Assembly (NCBI GenBank): GCA_964410025.1
Contig: CAYPFA010000001.1
Span: 223,401-287,400 of the forward strand
Length of the DNA: 64,000 bases
Direction: 5' to 3'
From: Candidatus Woesearchaeota archaeon
Lineage (GTDB): Archaea; Nanobdellota; Nanobdellia; Pacearchaeales; GW2011-AR1
Position numbers and translations under genes: made by a program. Shown piece by piece: positions 32,839-39,181 of the stretch. Every line of letters starts with the position of its first letter. The stretch's first letter is position 1. A model generated the notes under the pieces. The model did not search any database. It was not told the origin of the DNA and was given only the letters and a program-made list of their open reading frames with translations.

Positions 32839-34005
32839 ATGGAAGTCGAATTAAAAGGCACAACTGAAAAAATTAAAGATCCTAGCGCAGCTAAGCGATG
32901 GGTTCAAAATCACGCTCGAATTTGTTATACTGAAAAAAGCTGGGACGAATTATTAGACGAGGGATTTAAAGAAGGATTAATCGGAAATTTAATTGGAAGA
33001 GGACACCATAGTCCATTTGATCATTTCTATTTAAATTTTTATTTTGAAGGTCCAGAAAAAGCACTCGCAATGGTTTTCAATAATCAAGGAATGTATACAA
33101 CATCTGAAAAATCCGCAAGATATACTATTATGGAAGGAATACCTGATCATCAAAAAAATCTTTATGACAAATGGGATAATTGGTTCTCCGAAGAAATTAC
33201 AAACCAATTTCCAACAAGCACCTTTCCTAAATTATATCAAAAAGGCGGAGATGGAAAAACGACTGCAGAAAAATTAGCACAAGAGAATGCAAGATATATG
33301 GCAAGTGTTTTCACGCCGACGAAAATGACACATTCTCTAACCTGGAGACAAACAAATATTATCTTTCATCAATTTGAAGATTATATATCAGAAAATAAAA
33401 ATAATCCAGACCACTTTAAGAAAAAATTAGCAGATTCCATGAAAAGTTTTGTCGAATCAAAGGAAATCAAAAACTGGATAATTGACGAAGCACAAGTAAG
33501 AATGAAGGGAAATATACCTCTTAAATTTTTTAGAAATGAACTTGAAGAACATTTTGGAAAAGATATTTATTCTACAAATTATACTGCCAGTTTTGCCTCA
33601 CTTGCTCAACTTCATAGGCACAGACTCGTGAATTATACCGTTTCAGATGGATTTCAATTAAGAGCACCGATGGGAGTTTATGTTCCTAGACTTGTTGAAT
33701 CTCGTGAAAAAACAGACGAATGGTTAAGCGATTTAAAAAGTATTTCTGAATATGATATTCCTCAAGCCCAACTATTAAGAGTGGGCGAAAGAGGATTTCC
33801 AGAAAATCTTCCAGCAAAAACTGAAGAAAGAGAATGTGGACTTGCGCAATTAGAAACTGCTAGAGTTATTGGTGAATTTTTAGATAATTATGGAAAAATT
33901 ATTCCAGAAATAGCAAACCTAAAACAACCAATATGTACTAAAAACGGATGCAAAAGAGGAGGATGCACTTTCGGGACAAAATTATGCCTTGATAGATTAA
34001 TATAA
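32839..34005 (+). CDS. ThyX-like flavin-dependent thymidylate synthase, long and divergent
   Basis: GRGHHSPFDH parallels ThyX GHETPFEH, and SEKSARY parallels ELSGRY. HRHR occurs only much later (LAQLHRHRLVNY). The stop overlaps the tmk start. Confidence 0.5.
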   Translation: MEVELKGTTEKIKDPSAAKRWVQNHARICYTEKSWDELLDEGFKEGLIGNLIGRGHHSPFDHFYLNFYFEGPEKALAMVFNNQGMYTTSEKSARYTIMEGIPDHQKNLYDKWDNWFSEEITNQFPTSTFPKLYQKGGDGKTTAEKLAQENARYMASVFTPTKMTHSLTWRQTNIIFHQFEDYISENKNNPDHFKKKLADSMKSFVESKEIKNWIIDEAQVRMKGNIPLKFFRNELEEHFGKDIYSTNYTASFASLAQLHRHRLVNYTVSDGFQLRAPMGVYVPRLVESREKTDEWLSDLKSISEYDIPQAQLLRVGERGFPENLPAKTEERECGLAQLETARVIGEFLDNYGKIIPEIANLKQPICTKNGCKRGGCTFGTKLCLDRLI

Positions 34006-34619
34006 TGCGTGGAAAATTTATTACATTTGAAGGACCAGAGGGCGGTGGAAAAACTACAATCTCAAAATTATTATATAAAGATTTCTTAGATGGGGGAATG
34101 CAAGCAGTTCTTACTCGAGAACCGGGCGGAGTTATAGAAGGTGAAGCAATAAGAACAATTTTGAAAAGTACAGATTACAAATTAACAAATCTTGCTCAGA
34201 TGTACTTATTTTCAGCAAGCCGAAATATGTTTGTAACGAGATTGGTAAAACCCAACTTAGAAAATGGTGTTCATGTTATTGCCGATAGATTTGCAGATTC
34301 TACACGAGCGTATCAAGGATATGCAGGTGGCGGAGATATGGAGAGAATAGAAAGATTGATTACAGAAAGTACTGAGGGAATTTCGCCAGATTTTACAGTG
34401 ATTATTGACATCGACCCGGAAATTGGCCTAAAGAAAGAAGTAGAGGACAGTAGCTTCTCGAAATTAGGACTTCCTTACCACCAAAGAGTCCGCGCAGGAT
34501 ATTTAGAAATTGCAAAACAAAATCCAGAAAGATGCTTTGTTCTTCCATACCAAAAGGATAAAGTTCTCGAGATGCACAATCAACTAAGAGAAGAAATTAA
34601 GAAAAGATTAATCATCTAA
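34005..34619 (+). CDS. tmk: Thymidylate kinase
   Basis: KFITFEGPEGGGKTT, LTREPGG, DRFADSTRAYQG. Confidence 0.9.
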   Translation: MRGKFITFEGPEGGGKTTISKLLYKDFLDGGMQAVLTREPGGVIEGEAIRTILKSTDYKLTNLAQMYLFSASRNMFVTRLVKPNLENGVHVIADRFADSTRAYQGYAGGGDMERIERLITESTEGISPDFTVIIDIDPEIGLKKEVEDSSFSKLGLPYHQRVRAGYLEIAKQNPERCFVLPYQKDKVLEMHNQLREEIKKRLII

Positions 34620-34700
34620 CAAAATTTCCAAATTTATAATTATAATTCCAAATGTGTTCAAAAAGTGGTAACACATATTTATAAAGAAAAGATTAATCAA

Positions 34701-34748
34701 ATACAATATGTTGTAGTAAAACACTACAAAAAACACAATATATTGTGT
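34701..34748 (+). promoter_or_regulatory. Two NrdR-box-like palindromes 32 bp apart (centre to centre)
   Basis: atacaatatgttgtag (34701-34716) and acacaatatattgtgt (34733-34748) resemble the NrdR box consensus acaCwAtATaTwGtgt. A 7-bp hairpin tcgtcga-gctt-tcgacga follows at 34748-34765. Confidence 0.65.
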
Positions 34749-34788
34749 CGTCGAGCTTTCGACGATTAATAAAAAAGAGGTATAAAAA

Positions 34789-35241
34789 ATGCAATGCCCA
34801 TACTGTCAAAACGAAGAAACAAAAGTTACAGATAAAAGAGACGCAGAAGGCATGACAAAAAGAAGAAGGGAATGTTTGAAGTGTGAAAAAAGATTCACAA
34901 CATACGAACATGTTGAAATGAATTTAAACGTTATAAAAAAAGATGGCAAAAGAGAAAAATTCGACAGAGAAAAACTCAAAAGAGGAATATTTAGGTCCTT
35001 TGAAAAACGTTCACTAAAAACGGAAGAGATTGATGATGTGATAAGTGAAATAGAAGCAAAAATTTACAGAAATTCAAAAGATGAGGAAATTTCAACTTCA
35101 AAAATTGGCGAAATCGTCATGGACAAATTAAAAAAAGTCGACAAGGTTGCATACATTCGATTTGCCTCGGTATATAGAGAATTTGCAGATATTGAAGACT
35201 TTAAACAAGAACTAAAAGATTTAACAACAAATGGTAAATAA
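34789..35241 (+). CDS. nrdR: Transcriptional repressor NrdR (Zn ribbon + ATP-cone)
   Basis: MQCPYCQNEETKVTDKR...CLKCEKRFTTYE, followed by an ATP-cone. Confidence 0.9.
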   Translation: MQCPYCQNEETKVTDKRDAEGMTKRRRECLKCEKRFTTYEHVEMNLNVIKKDGKREKFDREKLKRGIFRSFEKRSLKTEEIDDVISEIEAKIYRNSKDEEISTSKIGEIVMDKLKKVDKVAYIRFASVYREFADIEDFKQELKDLTTNGK

Positions 35242-37267
35242 AGTAAGAAAAAGAGATGGAACGGTGGTTTTATTTGATAAAGAAAAAATTACTGATGCAA
35301 TTTGGAAAGCAGCGAAGGCAGTCGGTGGTCACGACAGAGAAAGAGCAGCAAGAGCAACAGAAATTGTTTGTCAAAAACTAAAAGATAAATATGGAGAAAA
35401 CGGCATACCAGAAGTTGAAGAAGTTCAAAACCTAGTAGAATCTGTTTTAATAAAAGAAGGACACGATCAAACTGCAAAAGCTTATATCTTATACCGAAAA
35501 TCCCACGAAGAACTAAGAAATGTAAAAGGACTTTTTGATACAATTGAAGCAGTTGAAGATTATATTGGCCTGAACGATTGGATGGTTAAAGAAAATTCTA
35601 ACATGGGTTTCTCACTACAAGGATTAAATAATTATATTGCAACAAAAATTATTACAAACTATTGGATGAGAAGAGTTTATCCAGAGTCAATGAGAAACGC
35701 ACATGAGAATGGCGAAATTCATATCCATGACCTGGGAACCCTTGGGGCCTATTGCGTCGGATGGGACCTTAAAGATATACTTACCGTTGGATTTACTGGA
35801 GTAAAGGGAAAAGTTCAATCCAAACCAGCAAAACATTTGAGAACCGCATTGGGACAAATGGTAAATTTCTTCTATACTCTTCAAGGAGAGACGGCAGGCG
35901 CCCAGGCTTTTTCTAACTTTGACACACTACTTGCTCCTTTTGTAAAATATGATAATCTGGACTATAACAGTGTAAAACAGGCTATGCAGGAATTCGTTTT
36001 TAATTTAGCAGTTCCAACTAGGGTAGGTTTCCAAACACCATTTACAAATATTACATTAGATTTGAAAGTTCCAAGCTATATGGCAAACGAACCAGTAATT
36101 ATTGGCGGCTTGCCTCAAAAAGAAACCTACAAAGAATTCCAAACCGAAATGGATATGATAAACAAAGCATTCGCAGAAGTAATGGTTGAAGGCGACGCAT
36201 CTGGAAGAGTTTTTACATTCCCAATTCCAACCTACAACATCACAAAAGATTTTGATTGGAGCAACCCAAACTACGACGCTATTTGGGAAATGACTGCAAA
36301 ATACGGAATACCTTATTTTTCTAATTTTATAAATTCAGATATGAAACCAGAAGATGCAAGAAGTATGTGTTGCCGTCTAAGACTTGATCAAACCGAATTA
36401 AGAAAAAGAGGCGGCGGATTATTCGGGGCAAATCCTCAAACAGGCTCAATCGGCGTAGTAACATTAAATATGCCAAGAATAGGTTTCACGGCACAATCGA
36501 AAGAAGACTATTTTAAAAAAGTTGGTGAACTAATGGAACTATCCAAAGAAAGTTTGGAAATCAAAAGAAGAACAATTGAAAGATTTACCGAAGTTGGCTT
36601 ATATCCCTATTCAAAATTTTATCTAAGACAAGTAAAACAAAGATATGGCCAATATTGGAAAAACCATTTTGCAACAATCGGACTTTTGGGAATGAATGAA
36701 AGCATAATGAATTTTATGCCAGGAGAAAACATAGCAACGGAAAAAGGCAAAGCATTCGCTATTGAGGTTTTAGATTTCATGAGAAAAAAACTTGAAGAAT
36801 ATCAAGCGGAAACAGGTAATATCTATAATCTTGAAGCAACTCCAGGAGAAGGAACAACCTACAGATTTGCGAGAATGGACAAAAAAAGATTTGGAAGAAT
36901 CCTTGTGGCTAATGATGAAGCGGTAAAAAAAGGAGCAAACCCTTATTACACAAACTCAACTCAACTTCCAGTAAACCATACGGATGATTTATTTTTAGCA
37001 ATGGAACTGCAAGATGAACTACAAACAAAATACACAGGAGGAACTGTTTTCCACGCATTCATCGGAGAAAGACTTCAAAAAGAAGGAGTAAAAAAACTTA
37101 TAAAATCCATGGCAGAAAATTTCAAAATGCCCTATTTTACATTAACTCCAACATTTTCCATCTGTCCAGTCCACGGATATATACAAGGGGAGCATGAGTT
37201 TTGTCCTAAATGCGATGATGAATCCAGCTACCAAGAAGGAGAAGAATTCAATCTCAGAACAGTCTAA
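35231..37267 (+). CDS. nrdD: Anaerobic (class III) ribonucleoside-triphosphate reductase, large part lacking the glycyl-radical C-terminus
   Basis: N-terminal ATP-cone (VRKRDGTVVLFDKEKI), central NrdD barrel with catalytic-loop MCCRLRLD. It ends CPKCDDESSYQEGEEFNLRTV without the RxxGY motif. Confidence 0.9.
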   Translation: MVNKVRKRDGTVVLFDKEKITDAIWKAAKAVGGHDRERAARATEIVCQKLKDKYGENGIPEVEEVQNLVESVLIKEGHDQTAKAYILYRKSHEELRNVKGLFDTIEAVEDYIGLNDWMVKENSNMGFSLQGLNNYIATKIITNYWMRRVYPESMRNAHENGEIHIHDLGTLGAYCVGWDLKDILTVGFTGVKGKVQSKPAKHLRTALGQMVNFFYTLQGETAGAQAFSNFDTLLAPFVKYDNLDYNSVKQAMQEFVFNLAVPTRVGFQTPFTNITLDLKVPSYMANEPVIIGGLPQKETYKEFQTEMDMINKAFAEVMVEGDASGRVFTFPIPTYNITKDFDWSNPNYDAIWEMTAKYGIPYFSNFINSDMKPEDARSMCCRLRLDQTELRKRGGGLFGANPQTGSIGVVTLNMPRIGFTAQSKEDYFKKVGELMELSKESLEIKRRTIERFTEVGLYPYSKFYLRQVKQRYGQYWKNHFATIGLLGMNESIMNFMPGENIATEKGKAFAIEVLDFMRKKLEEYQAETGNIYNLEATPGEGTTYRFARMDKKRFGRILVANDEAVKKGANPYYTNSTQLPVNHTDDLFLAMELQDELQTKYTGGTVFHAFIGERLQKEGVKKLIKSMAENFKMPYFTLTPTFSICPVHGYIQGEHEFCPKCDDESSYQEGEEFNLRTV

Positions 37268-37287
37268 AGAGGTAAAAAGGAGGTCCA

Positions 37288-37410
37288 ATGAAACAAAGAA
37301 CTAAATGCGAAGTATACAGTAGAATTTGCGGCTACATTCGTCCAGTAGAGCAATGGAATGAAGGCAAGCGTGCAGAATTTACTGATAGATCAAAATTCAG
37401 AGTTGAATGA
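37288..37410 (+). CDS. Stand-alone 40-aa NrdD glycyl-radical domain
   Basis: Not in ORF track because it is too short. MKQRTKCEVYSRICGYIRPVEQWNEGKRAEFTDRSKFRVE carries the NrdD C-terminal SRIxGY...RPV..WN.GK..EF..R signature. It has its own SD aaaggaggt 6 nt upstream, is in a different frame from nrdD, and its stop overlaps the nrdG ATG. Confidence 0.75.
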   Translation: MKQRTKCEVYSRICGYIRPVEQWNEGKRAEFTDRSKFRVE

Positions 37411-38114
37411 AAATAAAATATTTACAGAAGACAACTCTTGTTGATTACGCAGGCGAAATAGCCTGCACTCTTTTTACTTTTGGTTGTAATTTCCGTTGTG
37501 GTTTTTGCTACAACCCCGAACTAGTGCTCGAAGAAAAAACACCCGATCTTTCTCAAGATGAAATATTAAAATTTCTCGAACAAAGAAAAAAATATCTTTC
37601 CGCTATTTGTATAACTGGCGGAGAACCCCTAATTAACATAGATACAGAATTCCTGCAAAAAATAAAAGATATAGGATACAAAATAAAAATAGACACTAAC
37701 GGAAGTTTTCCGGAAAAACTAAAAGAACTAATTGATAAAAAACTTATTGACTTTGTCTCCATGGACATTAAAACAAAAAAACAAAACTACATAACCCTAA
37801 CAAATTCCCTAATTGAAATTGAAAAAATAGAAGAAAGTATGAAAATTATTTCCAATTTAGAAAATTATGAATTTAGAACTACTATCGTTCCTCTTCTGCA
37901 CAAAAAAAATGACATTATAGAAATGCTTGTTTGGCTAAACGAAGTAATTGGTAAAAAGCCCAAAAAATTCTCACTTCAAGGATTCAAAAACAAAGGAAAG
38001 TTTATAGATGAAAATTTTAAGAAAGAAAAGAACGCAACCGAAGAATTTCTTCAAGAAATTAAAACAGAAATTTTAAATAGTGCACTTGCGGAAATTGTTG
38101 AGGTAAAAATATGA
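37407..38114 (+). CDS. nrdG: Anaerobic RNR activating radical SAM enzyme
   Basis: FGCNFRCGFCYNPE cluster motif, ITGGEPL. Sits directly after nrdD. Confidence 0.85.
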   Translation: MKIKYLQKTTLVDYAGEIACTLFTFGCNFRCGFCYNPELVLEEKTPDLSQDEILKFLEQRKKYLSAICITGGEPLINIDTEFLQKIKDIGYKIKIDTNGSFPEKLKELIDKKLIDFVSMDIKTKKQNYITLTNSLIEIEKIEESMKIISNLENYEFRTTIVPLLHKKNDIIEMLVWLNEVIGKKPKKFSLQGFKNKGKFIDENFKKEKNATEEFLQEIKTEILNSALAEIVEVKI

Positions 38115-39181
38115 TAATTGGACTAACGGGAACAAAGGCATCCGGCAAAGGAATTGTTGCAGAAATACTAAAAGAAAAAGGCTTCTTTTACTTATCAACT
38201 TCCGACCAAGTTAGAAAAGAAGCTCTCTCAAGAGGAATGATAAATTATACCATTTCTGATTTACAAAATATAGGAAATGAAATTAGAGAGAAATTTGGTT
38301 CTGAAGAATTAGTTATACGATGTATAAAGGAAGCAAACGAAAAAGAAAATTTAGTTATTGATGGAATTAGAAATCCTGGAGAGGTAAAAGAAATAAAAAA
38401 AGTTGGTGGAATAATGATTTCTATTGATGCTCCTGTTGCATTAAGATTTGAAAGATTACTTTCCCGAAAAAGAGATAGTGATCCAAAAACACTTGAAGGA
38501 TTTAAACAAATGGAAGCAAGAGACCGTGGAGATAAAGAATCGGACAAGGGTCAACAAGTAGACAAATGCATAGAGATGTCAGACCATTTAATATTAAACG
38601 ATAGTACACTTGAAACATTAAAAACAAAAATAGAATATATTTTACTAAAAGAAAAGTCAAAAGACAATTCATCAATAAATCAGGGAGACGGAATTAATGA
38701 TTATAAAAGACCATCCTGGGATGAATATTTTATGGAAGTTTGTAAAGCCATTGCAAAAAGAGCAACCTGCGACCGAGGAAGAAGCGGATGTGTAATCGCC
38801 AAAAATAAACAACTTTTAGTAACTGGCTACGTTGGTTCTCCCATAGGAATGCCACATTGTGATGAAGTTGGACATTTATTTAAAAAAACAATTCACGAAG
38901 ACGGAACAATTACAAATCATTGCGTCAGAACCGTTCATGCAGAACAAAATGCAATTTGCCAAGCAGCAAAATTAGGAGTTGCACTAGAAAATGCAACACT
39001 TTATTGTAAAATGACTCCATGTAGGGTTTGCGCCATGCTAATAATAAATTCTGGAATTAAAAGAGTTGTTTGTGAAAAAAAATATCAAACAGGAAAAGAA
39101 TCCGAAGAAATGTTCGAAAAAGCTGAAGTAGAATTAAAAATACTTAATCCTGAAATAGAAGATTATTCCAATCAAAAATGA
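38111..39181 (+). CDS. Fusion of a P-loop (nucleotide/dephospho-CoA-kinase-like) domain with dCMP deaminase
   Basis: N-terminal IIGLTGTKASGKG. C-terminal half has HAEQNAI and PCRVCA zinc motifs of ComEB/dCMP deaminase. Confidence 0.8.
   Translation: MIIGLTGTKASGKGIVAEILKEKGFFYLSTSDQVRKEALSRGMINYTISDLQNIGNEIREKFGSEELVIRCIKEANEKENLVIDGIRNPGEVKEIKKVGGIMISIDAPVALRFERLLSRKRDSDPKTLEGFKQMEARDRGDKESDKGQQVDKCIEMSDHLILNDSTLETLKTKIEYILLKEKSKDNSSINQGDGINDYKRPSWDEYFMEVCKAIAKRATCDRGRSGCVIAKNKQLLVTGYVGSPIGMPHCDEVGHLFKKTIHEDGTITNHCVRTVHAEQNAICQAAKLGVALENATLYCKMTPCRVCAMLIINSGIKRVVCEKKYQTGKESEEMFEKAEVELKILNPEIEDYSNQK

Follow-up and report, generated by a model that had tools for sequence, protein, structure and literature searches.

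A candidate two-gene class III ribonucleotide reductase from a Woesearchaeota archaeon, with the glycyl-radical loop encoded as a separate 40-residue peptide

Can the glycyl-radical loop in a class III ribonucleotide reductase (RNR) be supplied by a gene of its own, or does such a gene merely betray a broken or misread nrdD? The question is raised by a locus in a 64,000-nucleotide stretch of DNA from a Candidatus Woesearchaeota archaeon (contig CAYPFA010000001.1, positions 223,401 to 287,400; the whole stretch is termed the window, and coordinates count from its first letter). Here the forward strand carries an nrdD gene for a core subunit of 678 amino acids (aa; 35231..37267) that closes with a TAA stop codon at 37265-37267. 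A spacer of 20 nucleotides (nt; 37268..37287) then holds a Shine-Dalgarno (SD) sequence, AAGGAGGT, at 37277-37284, 4 nt upstream of the ATG of a second open reading frame (ORF; 37288..37410), which lies in frame +2 relative to nrdD and encodes a 40-aa peptide, MKQRTKCEVYSRICGYIRPVEQWNEGKRAEFTDRSKFRVE. The SD is complementary to the 16S 3' end of the same genome, GGATCACCTCCT (the anti-SD), and the TGA of the peptide gene (37408-37410) overlaps the ATG (37407-37409) of the activase gene nrdG as the tetranucleotide ATGA at 37407-37410. This layout, with the stop at 37267, the ORF 20 nt downstream in another frame, its own SD and the overlap with nrdG, had been described in an earlier, sequence-only reading and was confirmed when the sequence was read again. 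The evidence assembled here consists of observed gene structure, conservation, purifying selection and distribution, and in its light the locus very probably encodes a genuine two-gene class III RNR that has been kept by evolution, most likely an obligate two-subunit enzyme bearing its radical on a small, possibly exchangeable subunit.

The two products complement each other in profile coverage to a degree far beyond chance. The 678-aa ORF covers positions 1-531 of the 562 in the Pfam family NRDD (PF13597; 604 bits, cut-off 26) and 2-651 of the 684 in the NCBIfam family NF006126 (1038 bits, cut-off 548), and the 40-aa ORF supplies exactly the missing end, matching NRDD 530-562 (E 4.7e-11) and NF006126 649-683. 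In Pfam and NCBIfam the small ORF matched NrdD families only, and the Gly_radical family of the pyruvate formate-lyase (PFL) type was not matched. A search of the PDB with the 40-aa peptide alone as query returned no match, and its alignment was instead bridged through the C-terminus of a fused relative. The core bears an ATP-cone (residues 4-94), an NxN flap in the form NSN (122-124, aligned to the flap of P. copri NrdD), the alpha/beta barrel and a finger-loop motif, MCCR (379-382), the MGCR/MCCR distinction and the MCCR lineage being as defined elsewhere (PMC9669993). The glycyl-radical loop is missing from the core; its counterpart, SRICGY, sits on the 40-aa ORF, so that the RxxGY motif lies on another chain than the barrel, with a predicted radical site at Gly15 (codon 37330-37332).

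The position of the cut departs from the sequence-only reading, which had nrdD ending after the first CxxC of the Zn site. The core carries a complete Zn ribbon, C645-x2-H648-x9-C658-x2-C661 (CxxH-x9-CxxC), to be compared with the CxxxH-x6-CxxC ligands of T. maritima NrdD (PMC4493059); the ligands were assigned by homology, a fused relative being aligned to T. maritima 4COI and the motifs then located in the window protein. All four ligands are on the large piece, so that nrdD does not end midway through the Zn site. A 17-residue acidic tail follows the ribbon before the stop codon, and the cut is thus placed, on this assignment, between Zn ribbon and Gly loop, 17 residues past the complete ribbon. 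The claim that the glycyl-radical domain forms a separate ORF accordingly holds for the Gly loop and tail but not for the Zn ribbon, which stays with the core. Indeed, the peptide contains only the buried Gly loop and a C-terminal surface tail, whereas the whole glycyl-radical domain of P. copri NrdD, as defined in PMC11226230, exceeds what the window peptide carries.

Judged by these motifs, the window NrdD has each defining feature of class III save a Gly loop on the same chain, and reduction of nucleoside triphosphates is predicted. It most closely resembles one-chain NrdD/NrdG systems of the MCCR lineage in its ATP-cone, NxN flap, barrel, MCCR loop, Zn ribbon, RxxGY loop with tail, and adjacent NrdG (structural references for the one-chain enzymes were T. 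maritima 4COI/4U3E, P. copri 8P23 and phage T4 1H78), but differs in that the chain is cut before the Gly loop and the last ~35 profile positions form a separate product with its own ribosome-binding site.

The junction recurs in other assemblies and throughout the relatives of the window genome. Three aligned assemblies of a sister strain (ENA ERZ27250602, ENA ERZ27250635 and Logan SRR8536341) agree with the window in TAA, 20-nt spacer, SD and ATG and are free of indels there. Their spacer differs from that of the window by 2 substitutions and the encoded peptide is 93% identical; ~10% of the positions in the peptide gene differ, and far more in the tail of the core. At the level of gene layout, a fourth assembly (JGI 3300059473) shows a 98%-identical peptide and the same gene order, with a 25-nt gap. 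Among 40 relatives, every NrdD-bearing genome of the same genus is split, as are genomes of three further genera of the family, and NrdD is 75-81% identical among ten split genomes of the same genus and family. The sequence-only reading had proposed comparing the NrdD termini of relatives, and these are not all contiguous: 30 loci from the archaeal class of the window genome share the split position, as expected of a natural two-piece NrdD. In all 30, TAA, TAG or TGA terminates the core, and the ATG of a small ORF of 39-75 aa is preceded at 5-10 nt by an SD-like GGAGG or GAGGTG, with -74 to +58 nt from core stop to peptide start and all three relative frames represented. A conserved SD and ATG with varying frame, distance and stop codon therefore argue for separate initiation rather than for a frameshift error or recoding.

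The same 30 junctions held no extra ORF, no homing-endonuclease trace and no mobile element, and a homing-endonuclease origin of the split was rejected. A split intein or trans-splicing was likewise rejected, the 17-aa core tail and the 4-6 aa of the peptide N-terminus being much too short and intein motifs absent. The core tail beyond the Zn ribbon, 3-75 aa long and highly variable in sequence, has a net acidic composition in 29 of the 30 loci, and the peptide N-terminus is net basic in 28; these opposite charges could be an aid to electrostatic docking, or merely an inherited linker composition. One congener does bear an in-frame insert of 316 aa near residue 269 of its NrdD core (L014 2725-3672, G007:C50, minus strand), away from the split site. 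It matches LAGLIDADG_3 (7.8e-6), with Intein_splicing below its cut-off, and is probably an intein with a LAGLIDADG endonuclease; several fused NrdDs of ~1030-1080 aa, cellular and viral, probably carry inserts of this kind.

The small peptide is under purifying selection, with a median ratio of nonsynonymous to synonymous substitution rates (dN/dS) of 0.11 over 33 codons in ten orthologues, synonymous sites being near saturation. Eleven residues do not vary among 26 stand-alone peptides: R12, G15, Y16, R18, P19, W23, N24, G26, K27, E30 and R34. The window genome has one loop-less NrdD core, whose profile match ends at 531 of 562, and one peptide gene, which makes the peptide obligatory in this case. 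Searches for a class I or II RNR (PF02867) found none in the window genome or in nine other split-bearing relatives, in genomes that are 52-90% complete. The sole congener without NrdD (G005) has a PF02867 protein instead, and an RNR therefore appears to be needed.

How, then, do the alternatives fare? Since the two frames differ, a single indel could in principle have parted an ordinary one-chain nrdD, whether by sequencing or assembly error or by a very recent frameshift, and two bacterial loci (L136 and L137) have several frame breaks in the core. This was the alternative left standing by the sequence-only reading, but restoring a fusion in the window would require that the stop be removed and the frame shifted inside 20 nt of spacer, where a canonical SD and ATG are also found. 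The indel-free junction in three other assemblies, the gene order in a fourth, the 30 related loci with three relative frames and three stop codons, and the dN/dS of the small ORF leave such an error with a negligible probability. Programmed recoding by frameshifting, read-through or bypass would yield a fused NrdD and make the separate ORF only apparent. It can draw on the 8 of 30 loci in which core and small ORF share a frame, among them L032 and L035, where the ATG directly follows the stop and read-through would give a fusion. Relative frame (0, +1, +2), distance and stop codon nevertheless vary among close relatives, no slippery or bypass signal is conserved among the 30 loci while SD and ATG are, and the peptide gene occurs without an upstream core in viruses and some genomes; recoding is thus a highly improbable explanation.

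DPANN archaea have reduced genomes and often depend on hosts. The RNR might accordingly be decaying or non-functional in a symbiont that imports deoxynucleotides, the small ORF having another role or none. This is an unlikely account of a core that keeps every catalytic motif and 75-81% identity from genus to genus, beside a peptide under strong purifying selection and in an operon that keeps nrdG and nrdR with NrdR-box-like palindromes, especially as no other RNR was found in the ten genomes and the NrdD-less congener has one of class I/II. The remaining rival, that the core is self-sufficient and the peptide an optional spare part of the GrcA/YfiD type that only rescues oxygen-damaged enzyme, has a precedent in PFL (PMC8683613) and fits one genome (G247) that has two fused NrdDs and two orphan ORFs. 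For the window it can be given very little credence: the NRDD profile follows the loop-less core only as far as 531 of 562, and one core is paired with one peptide gene.

A few points do weigh against an obligate two-gene enzyme. Import of deoxynucleotides from the host is possible, so sole-RNR status does not prove essentiality, and a 40-residue peptide may bind its core weakly; for PFL, the affinity of a truncated YfiD was too low to be measured (PMC8683613). Two of the apparent splits, in a Saccharibacteria and a Saccharicrinis metagenome-assembled genome (MAG; L136 and L137), have further frame breaks inside the core, and in a congeneric Saccharicrinis genome (L142) NrdD is fused; both look like assembly indels or pseudogenes and are not countable as natural splits.

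A two-piece NrdD is structurally plausible on two counts: the glycyl-radical domain of P. copri NrdD shows great mobility, to the point of moving right out of the core (PMC11226230), and a glycyl loop given in trans as YfiD can restore a glycyl-radical enzyme (PMC8683613). For the two-gene enzyme favoured here, we infer complex formation, activation by NrdG, catalysis and exchangeability of the small subunit, along the following lines. The core would bring the ATP-cone for allostery, the Zn ribbon, and, for catalysis, the barrel whose finger loop has two cysteines. The peptide, made separately from its own SD and ATG inside an nrdR-nrdD-peptide-nrdG operon, would dock in trans into the barrel, in the manner of the C-terminal loop of a one-chain enzyme. 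NrdG would take the Gly hydrogen to leave a radical on Gly15 of RICGY, acting either on the free peptide or on the core-bound peptide (compare YfiD with cleaved PFL), and the charged peptide, set against the finger-loop cysteines, would initiate every round of catalysis in the way of one-chain NrdD. In glycyl-radical enzymes the glycine is where oxygen breaks the chain (PMC8683613); in the two-piece enzyme such damage would cost only the 4.7-kDa peptide of 40 residues, and the large core could be reloaded. A bolder proposal, offered tentatively and with somewhat more doubt than confidence, is that the peptide acts as a diffusible, consumable cofactor, charged by NrdG, reversibly docked and replaced after oxygen cleavage, such that extra or viral copies could charge or take over a host core. 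The additional orphan peptide genes in genomes and viruses lend this idea of a replaceable peptide indirect support, in that they fit it and do not prove it.

The nearest functional parallel is provided by GrcA/YfiD of E. coli and Y06I of phage T4, small stand-alone Gly-loop proteins that are inserted in trans and activated by the activase of the enzyme body, with phage versions known of both these and the peptide described here. The comparison with GrcA/YfiD made in the sequence-only reading is useful as an analogy; it does not extend to homology, the window peptide matching NRDD and not the PFL-type Gly_radical family, and being 40 aa long rather than 127 aa, with no long disordered N-terminus. 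GrcA/YfiD is moreover optional for PFL, whereas the window peptide is obligatory and serves an RNR. Among phages, split RNR genes include nrdA-a/nrdA-b of Aeh1 (a mobE insertion), nrdJ-a/nrdJ-b of the Thermus phage phiYS40 (a 12-nt gap) and the fragmented nrdD of phiAS4 (PMC3653736). These likewise produce a catalytic subunit from consecutive ORFs, and the Aeh1 enzyme works in pieces. The phage cases are isolated, mostly of intron, intein or homing-endonuclease origin, and cut in the body of the enzyme, whereas the window split has no mobile element, separates exactly the radical loop and has been conserved in many lineages of archaea and bacteria. Class I RNRs (NrdA/NrdB) also hold their radical on a non-catalytic polypeptide, and in the class Ia enzyme of E. 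coli the active-site face receives a C-terminal stretch of the partner (PMC11226230), but the small subunits of class I are not homologous to the window peptide.

Full-text literature searches found no description of a split NrdD, and a two-piece class III RNR is apparently undescribed. Whether other glycyl-radical enzymes have spare parts is a question raised in the field (PMC8683613; PMC13450708), and a 2026 review names the formate lyases as the sole glycyl-radical enzymes with known ones (PMC13450708). If the consumable-cofactor proposal is correct, RNRs would gain their first spare-part or cofactor-peptide system, and a 4.7-kDa loop that is always separate would demonstrate delivery of a radical loop to an RNR in trans. 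It would further give a simple natural system for the study of activase access to the buried glycine and of ATP-cone control over the dynamics of the glycyl-radical domain, and offer a route to labelling or exchanging the radical-bearing part. Genes of 40 aa are easily missed or mis-annotated, and NrdD in many genomes of DPANN archaea and candidate phyla may consequently be wrongly called truncated.

The split is widespread. A phylum-wide peptide search of 400 high-quality genomes gave 42 strong matches in open frames of <150 aa against 43 inside long NrdD frames, such that about half of the sampled NrdD-bearing genomes are split. A tree of 44 cores requires at least 7 changes between split and fused states, 3 of them forced by well-supported branches, as against a mean of 12.1 changes after shuffling, with none of 500 shuffles as low as 7. 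The split state is hence clustered on the tree yet has changed several times, gains and losses being indistinguishable in a tree that is unrooted; the tree was built by a quick method, and the placement of L014 and L047, both of which carry inteins, is unreliable. Some fused NrdDs with long linkers, for example CPKCDALIDNLQENLKKRTRCE, could be re-fusions. Stand-alone proteins of 39-65 aa fall into 18 clusters, and 2944 peptide matches were obtained among 1.84 billion representatives at 50% identity, counts that reflect diversity and not proportion. Among the best 150 representatives, 149 are 41-174 aa long and at least 118 are Met-initiated and without a Zn motif, in a ranking where HMMER scoring somewhat favours short targets. 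In named genomes, several bacterial candidate phyla included, a split with an intact core is found in Woesearchaeota, Falkowbacteria, Beckwithbacteria, Dojkabacteria, Acetothermia and a gammaproteobacterial MAG.

The peptide also occurs as a module independent of its core. Four genomes (G425, G380, G382 and G273) have one truncated core with an adjoining peptide gene plus one or two more peptide genes elsewhere, and the two orphan ORFs that accompany the two fused NrdDs of G247 stand in tandem, the arrangement expected of true spare parts. In another genome a 147-aa open frame (L046, G367:C9) fuses the radical peptide C-terminally to a glutaredoxin-like domain (CPNC; Pfam Glutaredoxin 2.6e-6), a fusion that joins the radical-bearing piece physically to a likely reductant of the double-cysteine NrdD type. 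A second NrdD subfamily, of the CxxC...CxxC type and 24% identical (genus g67), is cut between its two Zn knuckles: in L213 (G057:C11, 420-3130) and L214 (G180:C14) the core ends after the first CxxC, ...FTVCMDCNQVGRGYDRD, and a peptide of ~50 aa with its own SD begins with the second, MAKCEHCGSTNVYGISRVVGY... The Zn site of this subfamily would be built from both chains, and the second cut point indicates convergence, an independent route to a stand-alone Gly-loop gene.

Viruses carry the module as well. In IMG/VR, 538 stretches encode relatives of the peptide, and the top 62 loci with a recognised motif divide into 8 fused ones and 54 small open frames of 41-193 aa that lack any NrdD core within 4 kb. 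Ten records searched whole contained only the C-terminal NRDD piece and no core; 7 of these are estimated to be at least 94% complete and 5 have terminal repeats. Terminase_6N matches were obtained in 3 of the ten, 2 of them above cut-off, the viral nature of the remaining records resting on the IMG/VR classification and terminal repeats. No NrdG match above the family cut-off was obtained in the five peptide-bearing virus records searched, and the genes flanking one viral peptide gene (L055) had no match in PHROGs. Peptide-only genes in near-complete virus genomes suggest an unrecognised viral manipulation of host deoxynucleoside triphosphate (dNTP) synthesis and, if this holds, a novel type of viral auxiliary gene, one that raises dNTP supply through a protein of ~40-100 residues.

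The virus-borne orphan peptides (L053-L132) take three forms: a short one, M..RTKCEVYSR...; one with an N-terminal extension, ...ELENGDLVLDNGVIIPAEKR...; and one whose N-terminal extension has a CxxC of its own, ..KCxxCHxxDPxLRNxxxCEVYSR... The two extended forms also stand beside truncated cores in MAGs of Acetothermia, Parcubacteria, Moranbacteria and Bdellovibrionales. A number of stand-alone peptides, many in all, close with Cys-rich C-terminal tails (...FSC, ...GCGC, ...CFNCSCEC or ...ECVQCIETAAHCCK; L003, L005, L006, L008, L009, L014, L044, L050 and L052; P0011, P0012, P0014 and P0016), which are absent from the window peptide and from the fused relatives examined and could serve as metal-binding or redox tails.

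In the window, the split gene belongs to a compact, single-strand cluster for dNTP supply (34005-39181) that runs through tmk, nrdR, the nrdD core, the radical peptide, nrdG and a kinase-deaminase fusion, all on the plus strand. The cluster begins with tmk (34005-34619; Pfam Thymidylate_kin 2.7e-35). Two palindromes lie between this gene and nrdR, namely TACAATATGTTGTA (34702-34715), where 12 of 14 positions match the reverse complement, and ACACAATATATTGTGT (34733-34748), a perfectly palindromic 16-mer. Read from the sequence, their centre-to-centre distance is 32 bp, and we take both motif and spacing to resemble the NrdR-box consensus. A hairpin with a 7-bp stem (~34750-34767) follows them, ahead of the SD of nrdR. 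The nrdR gene for the RNR-operon repressor (34789..35241; Pfam Zn_ribbon_NrdR 6.8e-16 and ATP-cone 1.2e-22) overlaps the start of nrdD with its 3' end. Downstream of the peptide gene, nrdG (37407..38114) encodes a radical S-adenosylmethionine activase (TIGR02495 NrdG2, 177 bits, cut-off 131) with the CxxxCxxC motif in the form CNFRCGFC, and is followed by a fusion of P-loop kinase and dCMP deaminase (38111..39181; Pfam dCMP_cyt_deam_1 2.7e-24 and AAA_18). The tight packing, with its 20-nt spacer and ATGA overlap, suggests that nrdD, the peptide gene and nrdG may be translationally coupled. The source genome is that of a small archaeon (830 kb in 6 contigs, 88% complete) whose small-subunit ribosomal RNA scores 1313 bits with the archaeal model against 1022 with the bacterial one, Candidatus Pacearchaeota MAGs being its nearest named relatives. 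On the related JGI contig, the same cluster continues into genes for a dUTPase and a thioredoxin.

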